Below, piece after piece: positions 3,485 to 41,284 of a stretch of 41,801 nt of DNA. The stretch lies in the sequence record PZ179881.1; one strand, given 5' to 3'. This stretch comes from a phage. The position numbers and the translations under genes were made by a program. The notes under the pieces are model-generated. The model was given only the letters and a program-made list of their open reading frames with translations, did not search any database and was not told where the DNA came from. Positions within the stretch are counted from its first letter, which is position 1. Every line of letters begins with the position of its first letter.

Positions 3485-3833
3485 GAAGGTAGCAGCAGTG
3501 GCCCTGGTTGCCGCTGTGCTGGCCTCTCTGCTGTTCCTGGTACACTTCTATAAGGATAAGGCTGATACGGCCACAGAGCGGCTCCAGGGCGTTACTACGG
3601 AGCTTACTGAGACTCGTGATGCCTATGACCGATACGTTAACGAGCAGAGCCTCATCCGGGATATCCTGGCTGCTGGTGCTGCGGCTAAGCAGGCCTCAAA
3701 GGAGAAGACTGATGATGCCATTACGAAACACAAGGCTTCCGGTACTCGTGTCACTGTTAGCGATGCTGACGCTGACCTCCTGTACCAGAGAAGTCGTGAA
3801 GTACGAGAGGGTGCCGCTGGTTCTATCCAGTGA
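3462..3833 (+). CDS. i-spanin (Rz-like)
   Basis: ATG at 3462 (in frame with track ORF 3282-3833), GGAGG ~10 nt upstream; N-terminal TM segment (VAAVALVAAVLASLLFLV) then charged helical periplasmic domain; start overlaps endolysin 3' end. Confidence 0.65.
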   Translation: MFPSTAVKKVAAVALVAAVLASLLFLVHFYKDKADTATERLQGVTTELTETRDAYDRYVNEQSLIRDILAAGAAAKQASKEKTDDAITKHKASGTRVTVSDADADLLYQRSREVREGAAGSIQ

Positions 3834-3999
3834 GGTTACTGACCCGGTTAAGCCTCCGCTGTTCCAGAAGGATACCGACCTGGTTGAGTACGCCTTGCAG
3901 CTCCTGGGTGATATTGAGCAGATGAACCAAGACCGCGCTACTGTGCGGAAAGCTGTGGATACCCACAACGGTGCCTCTGTGACTCACCCTGTGAAGTAA
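3712..3999 (+). CDS. o-spanin (Rz1-like outer-membrane lipoprotein)
   Basis: Internal ATG of track ORF 3508-3999 with GGAG 8 nt upstream; signal peptide ending in lipobox-like LTSC; short Pro-rich mature region; out of frame and overlapping the i-spanin gene. Confidence 0.6.
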   Translation: MMPLRNTRLPVLVSLLAMLTLTSCTREVVKYERVPLVLSSEVTDPVKPPLFQKDTDLVEYALQLLGDIEQMNQDRATVRKAVDTHNGASVTHPVK

Positions 4000-4043
4000 C
4001 CCTGTGCTGGGCCGTCGGTGAGTGTATACCTGCGGCCCAAATA

Positions 4044-4052
4044 TGGTATAAT
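4044..4052 (+). promoter_or_regulatory. Extended -10 element TGgTATAAT (possible host promoter)
   Basis: Perfect TATAAT with upstream TG; no convincing -35; located just after the lysis cassette at the start of the non-coding terminal region. Confidence 0.25.
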
Positions 4053-4149
4053 TATGCGAGACGGTAGCGACCCGGCGCGGAACCCGTACTTCCCCCATAG
4101 GGCACCCGGCGGAACCATCGGAGTGACCATCTGGCCATCTGGACGGCTA

Positions 4150-4190
4150 AACGGGGAGCCTGCCGGATAACCGGGGAGCGAACCGGGGAG
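4150..4190 (+). repeat. Three direct copies of AACsGGGGAG
   Basis: AACGGGGAG (4150-4158), AACCGGGGAG (4169-4178), AACCGGGGAG (4181-4190); flanked by further CCGGGT / GGGTTA-rich repeats to about 4460. Confidence 0.5.
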
Positions 4191-4503
4191 AACCTCGCTT
4201 TAACCTGTGGGTTAGCCGGGTTGCCCTGTGCTTTACTCTGTGCGGTATCCTGTGCGTTAACCGGGTTGTACTCACCACGTCCCGCAGGTTTATCAGAGTC
4301 GCCACGGGTTAGACTCAAGGGTTATCGGTTGGTGAGTTTAGCAGTTACATCACCGGGTAACGAGGGTATCGGGTTAACAGTGGCTATAGTAACAGGGTTA
4401 GCCGGGAGTGTCAACCGGGTTTATTCATTGGGTTACTCATTGGTTTAAATCCGGGTAGACAGGCGGCCTATCTGTATCTTCTGCCATTACCCAGAGAGTA
4501 AAT

Positions 4504-4527
4504 CTGAATTGGCACCCCTATAGTAAC
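4504..4527 (+). promoter_or_regulatory. Phage RNAP promoter (CTGAATTGGCACCCCTATAGTAAC) in terminal/leader region
   Basis: One of four near-identical + strand copies of yTGAwTTGGCACyCCTATAG; resembles the SP6/K11 class of single-subunit RNAP promoters (xxCACTATAG core); predicted +1 at the final G (4523). Confidence 0.65.
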
Positions 4528-4565
4528 AGAACGGTCGAATGCGGCTTGTGTATCTGTTACGGCGG

Positions 4566-4770
4566 TAACCCGGAGGGAAGGGAGGGAGGAGAGAGACACG
4601 GGAGAGAGTAACCCAGAGAGGAGACTACCCGGAGAGACTACCCAGAGCATAGCCCAGAGGTTAGCACCCAGAGAGTAACCCAGAGGAGAGCAACCCGGAT
4701 AAGCTAACCCGGTTAACAGACACGGAGAGCAAGCCAGAGAGTAACCCGGCATAGCATAACCCGGAGAGCT
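4566..4770 (+). repeat. Array of about 13 short purine-rich direct repeats (CCCrGAGAG-type units, period about 12-13 bp)
   Basis: Visible tandem units such as ACCCAGAGAG, CCCGGAGAG, CCCAGAGGAGAG, often followed by TAA or CTA; starts about 40 nt downstream of the phage promoter at 4504. Confidence 0.6.
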
Positions 4771-4805
4771 ACCGCCTATAGTAAACCCGGCTAACCCTGG
4801 TTAAC

Positions 4806-4817
4806 CTGCACTCGCAA
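4806..4817 (+). repeat. Recurring hairpin motif copy 1 (CTGCACTCGCAA)
   Basis: Core GCACTCGCA, potential TGC-ACTC-GCA stem-loop; intergenic, ~30 nt upstream of the sigma70-like promoter. Confidence 0.5.
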
Positions 4818-4848
4818 AGGGTATCTGTAAATAATTTCTAAAAGAGTG

Positions 4849-4878
4849 TTGACACGGGCTAATCAGTATTGCTATAGT
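4849..4878 (+). promoter_or_regulatory. Sigma70-type host promoter candidate (early)
   Basis: TTGACA (4849-4854), 18-bp spacer, TGcTATAGT extended -10 (4870-4878); AT-rich stretch upstream (4826-4846). Confidence 0.5.
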
Positions 4879-4988
4879 TCACATCGTCGAAGGGCAACAC
4901 GGAAACGGATAGCCCAGAGATACCCGGTCAAGCGGGTTAAGTAGACAGCCTGCTCAGTCATACGAACAACAGGCACTTGACAAGATGT

Positions 4989-5029
4989 GATGTAACGTAG
5001 TACCTTAGTAACCGATGTAACGCAGTACC
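4989..5029 (+). repeat. 16-bp direct repeat pair GATGTAACGyAGTACC
   Basis: Copies at 4989-5004 and 5014-5029 differ at one position; between a TTGACA box (4977-4982) and the first early ORF; candidate protein-binding site. Confidence 0.45.
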
Positions 5030-5088
5030 GCTCTTTAACAATCCGGGTAATCTATCAAGTGATGCCGTCTAACAATGAGGGTAACACG

Positions 5089-5400
5089 ATGGAATTAAAG
5101 AAACAGTTGACACGCTATAAACGCAGTGCTAACGTAGAAAAGCTCCACCAGACGCTAAGCGCTGAGGCGATGCAGAAGGATGGGCAAGCGGCACGACGCC
5201 GCAAGAAACAGCTAAGCGAGCGGCTTTACATTCCGCAAGTTATAAGCTCTAATGACTTCTCCGATAAGGGGAACATGCGCAAGACGGCAGCTAGGAGCAA
5301 TCAGGGCAACGTCCGCGCCATCGGCAATAAGACCGATGTTAAGATTAACAGCTATTGGTCAAGTAAACGCGGCGATAACATGCCGAAAGATAAAGGTTGA
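5089..5400 (+). CDS. Hypothetical early protein (very basic, low complexity)
   Basis: ATG at 5089 with GAGGG 7 nt upstream (track ORF 5059 begins at an upstream GTG); first ORF after the terminal promoter region; coding status less certain because composition looks atypical. Confidence 0.45.
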   Translation: MELKKQLTRYKRSANVEKLHQTLSAEAMQKDGQAARRRKKQLSERLYIPQVISSNDFSDKGNMRKTAARSNQGNVRAIGNKTDVKINSYWSSKRGDNMPKDKG

Positions 5401-21296: not shown

Positions 21297-21377
21297 CTGG
21301 TGCTTTAGACAATGGGTGTCCACGGGTAACGTGGACTACCTGCAATTATATCATGAGTGGAAGGGCAGAGGATACTG

Positions 21378-23828
21378 ATGGCAACACTGGAACAACAGTT
21401 GGAGTGGGAGCGTAAGCACCGTGAGCTAGGCCAGGCTAAGATGGCTGCGCAGCTACAGGCTGCAAAGGAAGACGGACGCATAACCGATACTCCCCTGGGT
21501 TCCGTTGTGCTTCGCCGTTACCTGCTCTGGCTGTCTCGTAAGATAGCGAAGGACGTAACCACTGACCTGGACGAGCCGGGGCGCAGCAAGGCGTATAGCC
21601 CTCTGCTGTTCTCCCTGGACATGGACGCGGTGGCACTGCTGGCAATCTCTGAGGCGTTGAAGCTGTGTGTGGCTGGCCCGGTGCAGGCGACTACCCTGGG
21701 CTTCGCCATCGGCAAGGTGCTGTATGGTGAGCTTGCTCTCGCAGCATTCCGCGACATGAACGCGAATCTGTATGAGGTGCTGACCGAAGACCTCCAGCGC
21801 AAGATGAGTAAAGACCTGCGCCACCGCATGACTATCTTCCGTATGCAGGCCCAGAAGAACGGCATTGAGCTGCCGGAGTGGACGCCGACGCAGAAGCTCC
21901 AGGTGGGTATGTACGTCATGGGCCTCATGAGTACGCCGAACGAAGACGGTGAGGTACTGCTGGAGAACACGCTCAAGAGCTACGGCAAGAAGACCAAGTA
22001 CATGGTTGACCTCGCGCCGGAAATCCACAAGCTCATGCAGGGTATTGAGGGCAGCATCATCGGTCGTTCCGGGTTCGCGGCACCGTGTCTGATTCCTCCG
22101 CAGGACTGGACGGGTGAAGAAGGTGTCGGCGGGTTCCACGGCGACCTCAAGATTCGCGCTGTACGTTTCTTCAAAGGTTCTACCTATCAATGGGAGGTTA
22201 TGAATAGCGAGGGCCATAATCCAGAGGTCACCCTGGCTATGCTCAACGCTCACCAGAAGGTAGCTTGGAAGGTAAATCCTTTCATTCTCGACTTATTGAA
22301 AGGTATGCGCTATCACGGATACGGTATCCGTAAGAAGGTCGAGTTCAGCAGCGCACACGAGAAGATTAAACCTGAGCGCCTGGAGTGGCTCGACACGGTT
22401 AAGGAAGGAGACTTCACAGATGTGCAGCAGTACAACTTCGAGACGTGGAAGCGGAAGATGCGCGACTGGCACACTGAGGCCAAACGCATTGGTCGTGTTG
22501 AACTGCGGTGCAACATGGCGATTAGTGCGGCTCAGGAAGTCAGCACGTTAGACCGATTTTACTATGTATATCAAGTAGATAACCGTGGTCGCATGTATCC
22601 GGTATCCGGGCTGCTTAACCCGCAGGGCAGTGACGTGCAGAAGGCGTTGCTCCACGCAGCGGACGGCGAGCCGATTGATACGCCGGAGGCACTCTGGTGG
22701 TTCAAGATGGGTATCGCCAGCAAGTTCGGCATAGATAAACTGGCCCCGGAAGACTGCGTTAAATGGGTGGACGACAACCATGCAAACATCATCCGGGCCG
22801 CTGACGACCCACTTGACCGAGACGCTTTTAACTGGTGGACTGGCGCTGATAAACCCTTGCAATTCATCGCCTTGTGTGATGAGTATCGCAGATATCACGA
22901 GTCACCAACCACCTTCGTCTCCCGCATCGCCGTCGCAATGGACGGAACCTGTAACGGCCTCCAGAACTATTCCGCCATGCTGCGAGATAGCGTGGGTGGA
23001 CGAGCTACAAACCTCATTAGCGCAGATAATGGCATACCTAACGATATCTATGGAGACGTCGCCAAAGCGTCATTTAAGCGACTTGGCAGAATGGAGGCGT
23101 CAAATCTGCGAACCGATTGGGTCAACTACGGCTTCGACCGTAGCCTTACTAAGAAGTCTGTAATGACCCAGGTGTACGGCTCCACCTTCGGTACTTGCCG
23201 AAAGTCAATCATTGAATACTGCTACGATAAACAAATCTTCGAAGGCTCGGAGTATGACCACGCTGATTATGCAGCGCGTCTGGTCTGGGACGGCATCGGG
23301 GATGTGGTTGTCAAGGCGAAGGAAGCGATGGACTGGCTGCGCAAGAGCGCCGGGGCGGTGATGAAGGAGGGTGCTGAGTACATTACCTGGCTGGCACCGA
23401 CCGGGTTCCGAGTCGTGCAGGTTTACAACAAGCACAAGACCATGCAGGTTCGTGCGCATATCGGCAAGAACGTGCGGCTGCGCGTACCTGACCCGGAGAA
23501 CATCGACGGGCCGGACAAGATGCGCCACCGTAACGCACTGCCGCCGAACTTCATTCACAGCATCGACAGTAGCCACATGGCGTTCGTATCGGTGCGCCTG
23601 GCGGCAGAGCTAGACGGGATGTTCATGCACTTCATCCACGACGACTTCGGGGTGCTGCCGAAACATGCGGCGCTGCTCTCGCGGGTAATTCGTGAGGAGT
23701 TCGTGAAGATGCACGAGAACTACAGCCTGGAGGACTTCAAGGCCGGGTATGAGTTCCTTGATGAGCCACCTGCAAAGGGTGACTTAGATATTAACTGTGT
23801 ATTAACCAGTGTTAACTTCTTTAGGTAA
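21378..23828 (+). CDS. Single-subunit DNA-dependent RNA polymerase (T7-like)
   Basis: 816 aa from ATG 21378 (AGAGGA upstream; track ORF starts at GTG 21357); conserved blocks MDGTCNGLQNYSAMLRDSVGGRATNL, PPNFIHSIDSSHM and FMHFIHDDFG align with T7 RNAP motifs. Confidence 0.9.
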   Translation: MATLEQQLEWERKHRELGQAKMAAQLQAAKEDGRITDTPLGSVVLRRYLLWLSRKIAKDVTTDLDEPGRSKAYSPLLFSLDMDAVALLAISEALKLCVAGPVQATTLGFAIGKVLYGELALAAFRDMNANLYEVLTEDLQRKMSKDLRHRMTIFRMQAQKNGIELPEWTPTQKLQVGMYVMGLMSTPNEDGEVLLENTLKSYGKKTKYMVDLAPEIHKLMQGIEGSIIGRSGFAAPCLIPPQDWTGEEGVGGFHGDLKIRAVRFFKGSTYQWEVMNSEGHNPEVTLAMLNAHQKVAWKVNPFILDLLKGMRYHGYGIRKKVEFSSAHEKIKPERLEWLDTVKEGDFTDVQQYNFETWKRKMRDWHTEAKRIGRVELRCNMAISAAQEVSTLDRFYYVYQVDNRGRMYPVSGLLNPQGSDVQKALLHAADGEPIDTPEALWWFKMGIASKFGIDKLAPEDCVKWVDDNHANIIRAADDPLDRDAFNWWTGADKPLQFIALCDEYRRYHESPTTFVSRIAVAMDGTCNGLQNYSAMLRDSVGGRATNLISADNGIPNDIYGDVAKASFKRLGRMEASNLRTDWVNYGFDRSLTKKSVMTQVYGSTFGTCRKSIIEYCYDKQIFEGSEYDHADYAARLVWDGIGDVVVKAKEAMDWLRKSAGAVMKEGAEYITWLAPTGFRVVQVYNKHKTMQVRAHIGKNVRLRVPDPENIDGPDKMRHRNALPPNFIHSIDSSHMAFVSVRLAAELDGMFMHFIHDDFGVLPKHAALLSRVIREEFVKMHENYSLEDFKAGYEFLDEPPAKGDLDINCVLTSVNFFR

Positions 23829-27353: not shown

Positions 27354-27361
27354 GCCAAAAG

Positions 27362-27385
27362 TTGAATTGGCACCCCTATAGCAAC
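27362..27385 (+). promoter_or_regulatory. Phage RNAP promoter upstream of major capsid gene
   Basis: TTGAATTGGCACCCCTATAGCAAC followed by the conserved AACTAAACGA and a hairpin; ~60 nt before the capsid start. Confidence 0.7.
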
Positions 27386-27396
27386 TAAACGATTCG

Positions 27397-38636: not shown

Positions 38637-38663
38637 CCGAACGGGGTGTACAATTCGTGTACG

Positions 38664-38687
38664 TTGAATTGGCACCCCTATAGTAAC
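38664..38687 (+). promoter_or_regulatory. Phage RNAP promoter upstream of tail fibre gene
   Basis: TTGAATTGGCACCCCTATAGTAAC followed by TAAACGAGGG; ~25 nt before the tail fibre ATG. Confidence 0.7.
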
Positions 38688-38707
38688 TAAACGAGGGAAT
38701 AGGCTTT

Positions 38708-41284
38708 ATGACCACTTCAACCTGGCAACCATTTGCTATAGGTGATGGCGACTATAACACCATGCACACCTGGGCTGGTGATGGTAATGCTGCTCGTGCA
38801 TTTGAGCTTAACTTCAAGGGCGGGTACATTAGCCAGGCTGACGTTAAGGCGTTTATGATTAAGCGCGGTACGAACCAGCAAGTTGACCTCACTGTTAAAT
38901 TTACCAATACGAACACCGTCACTCTGAGCCAGGCCGTACCGGAAGGCTGGGACGTGACTATCTACCGTGACACGCCAAAGGATAAGCCGACGGCATCCTT
39001 CGTGGACGGTGCGCTGATTACCGCAGCTAACCTTGACCGTAACGCACGGCAGGCTATCTTCGGTGTGGCTGAGCTGGCTGACCGGATGGATATCTCACAA
39101 GATACCTCCAACAATGCCCTGGCGACTGCACAGGCTGCTGTGGCGGGTGTGGCTGCTACCCAGGACACCGCCGACCACGCGGTAGGTATCGCCAATGACG
39201 CGGTAACCACTGCCAGAGGCGCAATGACCAAATCCAACCAGGCGCTTGCCCGTGTTGACCAGGCATCCAGCCGCTCGCTGGACGCACTCAACGTGGCTAA
39301 CGAAGCCCTGGACGTCGCTAACTCCCATGTTGACGACAGCAAGAACATTAGCCGCGTTGTCCGTGCTCCGGCAGGTGAAACCCTGGCAGAACTCCCGGCG
39401 CGTGAGCTGCGTAAAGGCAAAGGCCTCTCCTTCGACGTTAACGGCGATATTGTCGCTGTTACCCCGGTTGAAGGTTCTGCCGAAGCCGTGCTACAATCAC
39501 TCCGCCAGCCTAACGGACTGTCCCACATCGGTAACGCCTATGGCACCGCTGGACTGGACACCGCCATCAAGTACCTGACTTTTGAAATGTTCGGTGCTAA
39601 AGCTGGAACCACTACTGACCAGACTGCTGCTATTCAGGCAACGGTCGAAGCAGCCGCCAATACTGGCCTGCCTATCTGGTCTACTGGTGCCTACTTCATG
39701 AACGGTATAGTAACCCTTGATAAAGACGTCAAGATTACTGGTGCTAAGTTCATTGGCCCAGCATCGTCCACTTCTCAGAAGTTCGCGGTGCAGGCTGACG
39801 TTACCTTTGAGTGGTGCTCCTTTGACAAGGTGTACATTCACCACACTGACGGTAACCTGAAAGTTATCAACTTCAACATTGAGAACACCCGCTCCACCGC
39901 TGCAATCTTCTCTGAGAAGGTTGAGTCGAGAGTGACTGTAGAGCTGCGCTATGGCACGTTCCGTAACTGCTACTTCGGTTATCTCCGTCAGGGCGGCTCT
40001 GGCATGGGCCTTCGTGCGAACGTTATGCGCGGACTCCAGTTCTTTGACATGCAGGGTGACTGCATTGAAATGAACCTGTGCATCAACGATGAGTACACTC
40101 TGGTTGAAGACGTAGTAATCGACGTGGTTGACCACCTCGGCACCCAGCCCAATTGGGGCATCGCTATGGGCTTTGCTGGTAAGGGTGACTACGGACTGAC
40201 CGAGGACTACACCAACTACTTCAAGAACCTGACGCTGCGCAACTGCCGTGTGTATGCCGCTCGCCAATGTATCCACATTGAGAAGGGCTACAACTGCCTG
40301 ATTGAGAACGTCGAGCTGTACCCGGATAACAACCGCTCTACCAATGCTGGTATCGAAGCCGCAGGCCTCGTCCTGTATGGCTGCTCCAGCATTTCTGTTG
40401 ACGGTGTTACTGGTTCGCCGATTACTGGTCAGCGTATGCTCTGGGTTACCTGGGGTATCACTGGTGGTCAGTACAAGTCAGCAGGCCGGGATATCTCCTT
40501 CCGCAACGTCAACATCGGCGGTACGGTTGAGATTCACATGGCGGCTACCGACACCTACCCAGCGTTCCTGGAAATCGACCACCTGAATGCAGACAGGCTG
40601 ACCATCATCGGCCACGCCTCTGAGTACAATGTGGCTAACGTCCGGGCTAAGGCTATCGAAATGGAGTTCCACCGCGTTAACAACGACGGTCGTGACTCTG
40701 TACGTCGCCCTTCCCGCTGTGTGGCTAACTTCCGTAACGTCCGCGCCAATCTCATTGCGAACACTGGCGTAACCCTGGGCCGTATGGCCGTGGATGAAAT
40801 GTCCGTATCTGATACGAACTTCCCTCTGCGCAAAACAGCCAGCTCGGTTACCAACCGTGGTACGCCACTGACCAAGATTGACGGCACCTTCTTCCACGAA
40901 GGTAACGGGTTCCCGTGGGGCTACTGGTTCCTGCCAGGCGACCGCATCGTGAACGCACAGGGTACTACCTACACCATCCTGACGGAAGGTTGTCAGTTCA
41001 AGTCCTCTGGCGACACTGTGGTGCGGGCAGCATCCGCTGGAGCTACCCTGCTCCAGGGTAACACCACTGAGAACTGGACTACGGTTTACTGGAAGACGGC
41101 TGGTTGTAAGGTTGTCATTCCGAAAGGTGGTGCAGGCGGCTCTGACCTCCACACTACTATCATCCGCTCTGCCTACATCGGCGGCGGCATCTACACCATC
41201 GGCATCGCTGACCCGCTTGGCGCGGATATCCCTGCGGGGACTGTTATCACGCCGGAAGCGATTTGCACCTATGTAACTAAATAA
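38708..41284 (+). CDS. Tail fibre/tailspike protein with probable beta-helical polysaccharide depolymerase domain
   Basis: 858 aa; preceded by a phage promoter; central/C-terminal region has repetitive Gly/Asn/Thr-rich segments typical of beta-helix tailspikes (domain call from composition, not a search). Confidence 0.7.
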   Translation: MTTSTWQPFAIGDGDYNTMHTWAGDGNAARAFELNFKGGYISQADVKAFMIKRGTNQQVDLTVKFTNTNTVTLSQAVPEGWDVTIYRDTPKDKPTASFVDGALITAANLDRNARQAIFGVAELADRMDISQDTSNNALATAQAAVAGVAATQDTADHAVGIANDAVTTARGAMTKSNQALARVDQASSRSLDALNVANEALDVANSHVDDSKNISRVVRAPAGETLAELPARELRKGKGLSFDVNGDIVAVTPVEGSAEAVLQSLRQPNGLSHIGNAYGTAGLDTAIKYLTFEMFGAKAGTTTDQTAAIQATVEAAANTGLPIWSTGAYFMNGIVTLDKDVKITGAKFIGPASSTSQKFAVQADVTFEWCSFDKVYIHHTDGNLKVINFNIENTRSTAAIFSEKVESRVTVELRYGTFRNCYFGYLRQGGSGMGLRANVMRGLQFFDMQGDCIEMNLCINDEYTLVEDVVIDVVDHLGTQPNWGIAMGFAGKGDYGLTEDYTNYFKNLTLRNCRVYAARQCIHIEKGYNCLIENVELYPDNNRSTNAGIEAAGLVLYGCSSISVDGVTGSPITGQRMLWVTWGITGGQYKSAGRDISFRNVNIGGTVEIHMAATDTYPAFLEIDHLNADRLTIIGHASEYNVANVRAKAIEMEFHRVNNDGRDSVRRPSRCVANFRNVRANLIANTGVTLGRMAVDEMSVSDTNFPLRKTASSVTNRGTPLTKIDGTFFHEGNGFPWGYWFLPGDRIVNAQGTTYTILTEGCQFKSSGDTVVRAASAGATLLQGNTTENWTTVYWKTAGCKVVIPKGGAGGSDLHTTIIRSAYIGGGIYTIGIADPLGADIPAGTVITPEAICTYVTK

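Follow-up and report, generated by a model that had tools for sequence, protein, structure and literature searches.

The non-coding gap at positions 4000-5088 of a 41,801-nt stretch of phage DNA (sequence record PZ179881.1; hereafter the window, meaning the whole stretch) very probably contains a terminal region of the T7 type, in which the genome's physical ends lie at 4067 and ~4470 and bound a direct terminal repeat (DTR) of ~404 bp, the genome having been rotated in the record to the start of the terminase gene. A first-pass annotation, made from the letters alone, had proposed that the genome ends fall somewhere within this gap. The proposal can now be made precise, since the repeat boundaries of five relatives and of T7 align to 4066/4067 and 4470/4471. 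The predicted DTR (4067-4470, 404±1 bp) has both edges homologous to the DTR edges of relatives and is present in one copy; we found no second copy of 4067-4470, and no other long repeat, anywhere in the window. Assembly collapses a DTR, which accounts for the single copy. Furthermore, because position 1 of the window is the ATG of the terminase gene, the window represents a rotated assembly in which the physical ends are hidden. The DNA of the virion is predicted to measure ~42,205 bp.

The source genome is that of a Cronosvirus (Autographiviridae, Melnykvirinae), a T7-like Cronobacter podophage. The closest relatives of the region are Cronosvirus phages, namely EspYZU05 (97.8% identity), GAP227 (91.8%), and the Kosakonia phage Kc318 (89.4%). 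The plus strand carries all genes of the window, in the order large terminase (1-1926), endolysin, spanins, the gap, early genes, DNA polymerase, RNA polymerase, portal, capsid, tail genes, and tail fibre. The open reading frame (ORF) at 1-1926 encodes a nuclease domain of the T7 terminase type (PF22530, T7 terminase RNaseH-like domain; 6.5e-31), and the ORF at 21357-23828 encodes a T7-type single-subunit RNA polymerase (PF00940; 1.7e-89). Conservation within the genus was read from an alignment of seven Cronosvirus genomes. The ends were compared with those of T7 and of five Melnykvirinae phages from four genera that have a DTR in the record, and the offset of a C5 motif inside the repeat was followed in 15 phages.

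Boundaries of the predicted terminal repeat

At the left boundary (4066/4067) the window reads ...AAATATGGTATAATTATGCGAGACGGTA/GCGACCC..., where the slash marks the predicted cut. In all five Melnykvirinae records with a DTR, the repeat starts at the junction ...TTATGCGAGACGGTA/GCGACC... or at a close variant of it. The unique DNA ahead of the repeat ends in ...AAATWTGRTATARTTATGCGAGACGGTA in five of these five relatives (a close variant in GP-4), the repeat starts with GCGACC, and the window at 4038-4066/4067 matches this left junction exactly. The cut site terminates a conserved block (4000-4066, plus strand), the presumed recognition sequence of the terminase, which is nearly invariant in the seven Cronosvirus genomes. 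The portion of the block from 4022 on is conserved in 14 phages of at least eight genera and can be aligned by eye with T7 39749-39777, the T7 pre-repeat sequence AAAATATACCATAAAAATCTGAGTGACTA/ aligning with CAAATATGGTATAATTATGCGAGACGGTA/ of the window. This junction block is the sole DNA of the region that BLAST detected across genera, in 40 records ranging from Aeromonas to Vibrio and Proteus phages.

Conservation continues into the repeat. The motif TTCCCCCATAGGG (4090-4102, plus strand) occupies positions 24-36 counted from the predicted left end, the same offset as in T7 (nt 24-36). A C5AT or C5GT motif begins 25-27 nt into the repeat in all 15 of the phages examined, T7 included, and the C5AT motif of the window starts 26 nt in, matching T7.

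The junction block also contains TGGTATAAT at 4044-4052, read directly from the sequence, which the first-pass annotation had described as an extended -10 element. The element is present as described, but its promoter-like quality is lost in Aeromonas phages (TGGTACGCT) and in T7 (TACCATAAA). For this reason we assign it mainly to the packaging signal at the junction, with a promoter role that may exist in addition. One other candidate on this flank was a hairpin, GGGCCG...CGGCCC, just left of the cut site, with comparable stems in phi80-18 and phiR8-01; it was rejected as a conserved feature when RNAalifold found neither a shared structure nor compensatory pairs across nine genera. A scan of IMG/VR with the junction pattern returned five contigs, three of them known isolates, and says nothing about the ends.

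At the right boundary (4470/4471) the window reads GGCGGCCTA/TCTGTATC, and the segment CAGGCGGCCTA/TCTGTATC is invariant in the seven Cronosvirus genomes. Known repeats end at GGCGGSYTA/TCTRT, with the A of ATCTGT or ATCTAT no more than 1 nt from the end of the DTR in every one of the six phages whose repeats are known; in T7 this edge reads CCCT/ATCTGTTAC. The TATCTGT of the window at this edge (4469-4475, plus strand) is the putative equivalent of the class II pause signal of the T7 concatemer junction.

The repeats that provide these boundaries were established in different ways. The ends of Yersinia phage phi80-18, with a DTR of 325 bp, were located by ligation-PCR (PMC7316996), and the 443-bp repeats of Pectobacterium phage Arno160 by BLAST and read mapping (PMC7246868). 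DTRs of 385 bp and 584 bp are annotated in the records of Yersinia phage phiR8-01 and Klebsiella phage GP-4, respectively, and the record of fHe-Yen3-01 (Yersinia) has an exact, unannotated repeat of 368 bp at its two ends. The DTR of T7 is 160 bp long. An additional hint comes from the GY3 record, which is in reverse orientation and has an exact overlap of 121 bp at its ends. One of these ends falls exactly at window position 4470, a coincidence that is unlikely to be due to chance and that we regard as suggestive.

Phage promoter, pause signals and repeat arrays

Past the right end of the predicted repeat lies CTGAATTGGCACCCCTATAGTAACAGAACG (4504-4533, plus strand), a promoter predicted for the phage RNA polymerase and the counterpart of T7 phiOL, with a start near 4523 by analogy with T7. 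A phage-polymerase promoter at 4504 had been proposed in the first-pass annotation, and the proposal is strengthened by two findings: the promoter is one of three copies in the genome, and it resembles a validated promoter of the same genus. Its core GCACCCCTATAGTAACAGA (4512-4530) belongs to a set of only three matches across the genome, and 100 shuffled sequences yielded none. The other two, TTGAATTGGCACCCCTATAGYAACTAAACGA, are likewise promoters for the phage polymerase; they are located at 27361-27392 and 38663-38694, immediately before the major capsid gene and the tail-fibre gene, respectively, and share 97% identity over 32 nt. A promoter just past the DTR also occurs in phi80-18 (P1), fHe-Yen3-01, and Arno160, the relatives in which the promoter was located.

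The validated promoter is that of Dev-CD-23823 (Cronosvirus), CTGAATGTATACCCCTATATACACTAAACG, which drives its single-subunit RNA polymerase in vitro and shares with window 4504-4533 the frame CTGAAT....ACCCCTATA...AC..AACG (PMC12272871). The two promoters differ at positions approximately -11 to -8, which are TGGC in the window and GTAT in Dev-CD-23823, and also in a few bases around the start; the promoter of the window is known from sequence alone. A partial phage-promoter core, CGCCTATAGTAAACCC, is found farther downstream (4775-4785), at the end of the repeat array described below, and is identical in the four closest relatives. Because the upstream TGAATTGGCA specificity region is missing, this core is probably not a full promoter.

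The region contains three copies of TATCTGT (at 4469, 4551, and 4822), against an expectation of 0.03, and the genome total is five, all on the plus strand. These signals had been overlooked in the first-pass annotation, as had the boxA-like element of the early leader. The class II pause and termination core of T7 RNA polymerase, which occurs naturally at the T7 concatemer junction, is ATCTGTT, and the exact sequence is reportedly required by that enzyme (bioRxiv 10.1101/2021.01.11.426313). The copy at the repeat edge, TATCTGTA (4469-4476), matches six of the seven core bases at a conserved position and is a putative pause site. The second copy, TATCTGTT (4551-4558, plus strand), is a perfect class II core with ATCTGTT at 4552; it stands ~30 nt past the promoter start and is followed by a G-run purine tract (4571-4596). 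The sequence GTATCTGTWACGGCGG is conserved in the seven Cronosvirus genomes, and phi80-18 and fHe-Yen3-01 have GCGTATCTGTTAA at the equivalent place. The third copy (4822-4828, plus strand) lies just upstream of the predicted host promoter and is identical in five of the six other Cronosvirus genomes, Dev-CD-23823 being gapped there.

In T7, phiOL is a secondary origin. It is conceivable, though on balance we doubt it, that 4504-4600, with its promoter, ATCTGTT signal, and G-run purine tract, constitutes an added, transcription-primed origin of replication, a reading that does not compete with the placement of the ends. DNA synthesis would in that case be primed by a stable purine-rich RNA-DNA hybrid, formed by a short or paused transcript of the phage polymerase, with the arrays as accessory sites. 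The perfect pause core so close behind the promoter start and the GGAGGGAAGGGAGGGAGGAGAGAGA that follows it speak for such an origin, and 4551-4596 could yield a short transcript or R-loop. The arrangement is moreover conserved in Cronosvirus and mirrored in Pokrovskaiavirus, where ATCTGTT is followed by GATAAGAGAGAGAGAGA. However, the array motif by itself may account for the purine richness of the tract.

Short repeats occupy both the predicted DTR and the DNA that follows it. The left part of the DTR holds a plus-oriented group, which comprises three AAC(C)GGGGAG units (4150-4190, plus strand; at 4150, 4169, and 4181, one copy being short of a C) that had already been recorded as a threefold AACsGGGGAG repeat, together with two ACCCGG units (4070 and 4104) and one AACCC (4081). 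Within 4067-4199 there are five plus-oriented units and no minus-oriented ones. The orientation is then reversed in an array of 12 GGGTTA/CYGGGT units on the minus strand (4200-4460), also inside the DTR, whose core, when reverse-complemented, matches that of the array downstream. Twelve minus-oriented units (GGGTT/CYGGGT type) and two plus-oriented units were counted in 4200-4470, with a genome background of ~4 per kb per strand, and GGGTTA is found seven times in the region against 0.5 expected. The first-pass annotation had reported about 10 CCGGGT/GGGTTA copies at 4200-4460. The motifs are indeed there, as 12 minus-oriented units, but the array lies inside the repeat rather than beside it and is inverted with respect to the second array.

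This second array (4566-4810, plus strand) is the counterpart of T7 SRL and consists of 13 units of the form (T)AACCCRG(AGAG) (TAACCCRGAGAG), mostly 11-16 nt apart. The purine-rich array of about 13 units previously placed at 4566-4770 is in this way recovered over a slightly longer span, with 13 plus-oriented units, one minus-oriented unit, and 64% purine. ACCCRG is present 15 times in the region when 1.4 copies are expected. The inverted pairs I6 and I7, which link the two arrays, are 14 nt long and 100% complementary. When the two inverted arrays were paired as single-stranded DNA, the minimum free energy was -99 kcal/mol, with z = -2.3 against only 20 shuffles, a weak signal.

Absence of the repeats from relatives had been named in advance as a finding that would speak against a terminal region. 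No such absence was seen. The relatives all carry arrays, and the motifs are lineage-specific: ACTAAG in phi80-18, TAAGGGTTA in phiR8-01, CCTATC in GP-4, and CATAGAG in Dev-CD-23823. Among the seven aligned genomes, copy number varies in steps of whole units. Even within the genus the unit differs, being CATAGAG(TAA) in Dev-CD-23823 (in the equivalent of 4600-4800) and CCCAGAG(AGTAA) in the window, and consequently the array motif turns over faster than the surrounding architecture.

Most likely the arrays bind proteins or have a structural role, in connection with packaging or entry. A more specific proposal, which we put forward as a rather unlikely one, is that they may be binding sites for a fast-evolving phage protein (the small terminase or an early DNA-binding protein) that sets the specificity of packaging or replication, for example by looping of the junction. 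The retention of the architecture while the motif changes, both between genera and within a genus, fits such binding sites. The right cut site, the pause signal, and the left-end promoter are flanked in Cronosvirus and Pokrovskaiavirus by the two arrays, which are inverted relative to each other. We know of no function assigned to the T7 SRL/SRR arrays since 1983, and a search of a limited body of literature on these arrays gave nothing usable; if true, the binding-site proposal would provide their first function.

Alternative readings and the early leader

Several points weigh against the ends as we have placed them. The repeat is present only once in the window and the ends were positioned by homology alone, a DTR is absent from every Cronosvirus record examined, and the 121-bp overlap at the ends of GY3 could be an assembly artefact. 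The layout of the window also differs from that of T7 in the positions and orientation of the arrays and in the position of the phage promoter ahead of the array. Finally, the signal at 4470 reads ATCTGTA and departs by one base from the strict class II core (the polymerase of this phage is distant from that of T7), and two further TATCTGT copies exist at 4551 and 4822.

These copies suggest an alternative in which the ends do lie in the region but the repeat stops at 4551 or 4822, extending to ~486 or ~757 bp. There are three TATCTGT copies to choose from, the copy at 4552 is the sole perfect ATCTGTT, and DTR length spans 325-584 bp among relatives. We nevertheless consider a different right edge improbable. 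The GGCGGSCTA context of every known right boundary is found only at the 4470 copy, which is also where the GY3 record ends. Moreover, the post-promoter copy GCGTATCTGTTAA of phi80-18 and fHe-Yen3-01 falls outside their mapped repeats, and the phage promoter is outside the repeat in these two phages and in Arno160.

It is even less probable that the region is a regulatory leader only, in a genome that is circularly permuted by headful packaging or has its ends elsewhere. Such a leader would agree with the Cronosvirus records, none of which was deposited with a repeat and all of which are opened elsewhere (at 4611/4612 in GAP227, EspYZU05, and Kc318). However, the phage has a T7-type terminase and shares both boundary sequences with phages of mapped ends, and an opening at 4611/4612 that falls inside a repeat unit and is common to three records suggests a copied convention. 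We rejected 4611/4612 as physical ends, given that the two record ends abut in the window without a repeat, a configuration that likewise marks the break as a convention. The Dev-CD-23823 record is opened ~30 nt past the predicted right end, and none of the GAP227, EspYZU05, Kc318, Dev-CD-23823, and GY3 records reflects the predicted physical ends at both sides. A search of a limited body of literature on the ends of GAP227 gave nothing usable.

Positions 4000-5088 are non-coding, terminal repeat and leader alike, as the first-pass annotation had maintained in stating that no credible ORF lies between the o-spanin stop and the first early gene. ORFs of 50-94 aa do occur in this stretch, such as ORF 4221-4448 (75 aa) and the minus-strand ORF 4468-4752 (94 aa), and hypothetical proteins are annotated in or overlapping the equivalent region in the records of EspYZU13, phiAS7, Atoyac10, and phiR8-01, but hidden small genes are hardly credible when the four longest internal ORFs have no match in a PHROG search, the ORFs consist of repeat units, every other gene of the genome is on the plus strand, and close relatives differ by frameshifting indels of 1-2 nt within ORF 4221-4448 and by unit-sized indels that run through the ORFs. 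A search of 3900-5300 against Rfam revealed no known RNA family at E <= 1.

The gap is limited on the left by the o-spanin gene (3712-3999, plus strand), the last late gene, which encodes a signal peptide with an LTLTSC lipobox and belongs to the Rz-like spanin families of PHROG. On the right it is followed by the first early gene (5089-5400, plus strand; 103 aa; phrog_9286, 2e-29), with its ATG at 5089 and a GAGG at 5078-5081.

The leader upstream of this gene contains the predicted main early promoter for the host (sigma-70) polymerase (4849-4878, plus strand). With TTGACA and TATAGT separated by 18 nt, a TG element, 11 of 12 matches, and a -35 hexamer (AGTGTTGACA) that is invariant in the seven genomes, it deserves the description of a good sigma-70 promoter given to it earlier. 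A second candidate (4977-5006, plus strand) combines TTGACA with a weak -10 element, TACCTT, and is below the scan threshold in the window; its -35 hexamer is also invariant in the seven genomes, and GAP227 has a better -10 element (TACAGT). A putative leftward promoter of the sigma-70 type (4386-4414, minus strand; TTGACA-17-TACTAT with TG) lies inside the DTR and points to the left end. It overlaps a partial phage-promoter core, CTATAGTAAC, at 4384-4393.

The boxA-like element CGCTCTTTAACAA (5029-5041, plus strand) is part of the early leader, ~50 nt upstream of the first early gene, and is invariant in the seven Cronosvirus genomes. Most other relatives examined likewise have a boxA ahead of the first gene, and T7 has one at nt 813; none was detected in phiAS7 or Atoyac10. 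The element could act in Nus-dependent antitermination or as an A/U-rich translational enhancer. It resembles boxA of the rrn/lambda type in that it matches the rrnB core GCTCTTTAACAA (at 5030-5041) and sits in a leader transcribed by the host polymerase, here predicted, downstream of the promoters at 4849 and 4977. Its proximity to gene 1, in contrast, leaves a translational enhancer as an alternative role, and the rrnB boxA sequence has been employed as such an A/U-rich enhancer (PMC2176067). Approximately 170 extra bases separate boxA from gene 1 in GAP227 (~447-655) and EspYZU05; the window (at 5057/5058) and Kc318 are without them.

Relation to T7 and to other Melnykvirinae

In T7, each concatemer junction holds one copy of the repeat, cuts are made at both of its edges, the repeat is duplicated, and the left end is the first to enter the cell. 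From the homology of every landmark and the enrichment of the motifs, which the comparisons establish, we infer the cuts, the pausing, and the order of entry in the present phage as follows. The segment 4067-4470 would be present twice in particle DNA, at both ends, and once per concatemer junction. Late transcription by the phage RNA polymerase would cross the lysis genes into the repeat and pause at the ATCTGT on its right edge, and the T7-type terminase would recognize the conserved sequence that spans the left boundary (4022-4103). Terminase would then cut both repeat edges, and strand-displacement synthesis would duplicate the repeat. Upon infection the left end would enter first, and a leader of ~780 nt without host promoters (repeat, phage promoter, and array) would arrive untranscribed. 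Host RNA polymerase would start at 4849-4878, and probably at 4977 as well, pass boxA, and transcribe the early genes, with the promoter at 4504 as the likely counterpart of phiOL.

The region is an ordinary T7-style terminal region for this phage family and no new kind of system. The main value of the analysis is one of annotation, given that the public records of GAP227, EspYZU05, Kc318, and Dev-CD-23823 lack a terminal repeat and begin at arbitrary positions. The conserved boundaries permit placement of the ends at nucleotide level and a corrected length (~42.2 kb for this phage), and they provide, for the entire subfamily and beyond, a simple sequence rule, ...GCGAGACGGTA/GCGACC... and ...GGCGGSYTA/TCTGT.... 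T7 and this distant subfamily have in common the junction sequence, the C5ATAGGG motif, the ATCTGT signal, and the boxA leader, and this points to conserved steps of packaging and early transcription.

The likeness to the T7 left end that the first-pass annotation had noted is supported by homology and extends to the DNA past the DTR, where promoter, repeat array, and host promoters follow in a T7-like order. We compared the window with the whole T7 left-end system, which includes the repeat (1-160), the concatemer-junction (CJ) pause site, SRL/SRR, phiOL, A0-A3, and the leader before gene 0.3. The two share the pre-repeat sequence AAATAT..ATAA..AT..GAG....TA/, the motif TTCCCCCATAGGG at repeat nt 24-36 of T7, and ATCTGT at the right repeat edge. 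Both have a phage promoter, a short-repeat array with a period of ~13 nt (in T7 SRL, CCTAAAG at a 13-nt period, which parallels the array at 4566-4810), and rightward host promoters ahead of the first gene, with GCTCTTTAACAATC upstream of that gene. A leftward promoter of the host type stands near the left end in both, annotated as A0 at nt 224 in T7 and putative at 4386-4414 in the window.

The differences concern length and layout. The repeat measures 404 bp in the window and 160 bp in T7. T7 has direct arrays on both sides of its repeat (SRR and SRL), whereas the window has an SRL-like array only; with the spanin gene ending 67 nt short of the repeat, no SRR-like array precedes it. One array of the window is inside the repeat and inverted, whereas the units of T7 are all direct. 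The phage promoter precedes the array in the window and follows it in T7, the unit motif is TAACCCRG in the former and CCTAAAG in the latter, and the window, unlike T7, is without a phiOR-like phage promoter just left of the repeat.

The DTRs of other Melnykvirinae (phi80-18, fHe-Yen3-01, phiR8-01, Arno160, and GP-4) have the same boundary sequences as the window at both edges. A phage promoter lies within ~40-70 nt past the repeat in phi80-18, fHe-Yen3-01, and Arno160, as it does in the window, and the other Melnykvirinae share with the window a purine-rich or short-repeat array, boxA, and then gene 1. They differ from it in the length of the repeat (325-584 bp) and in their array motifs. The DTR is annotated or contained in the records of these other Melnykvirinae and in no Cronosvirus record examined.

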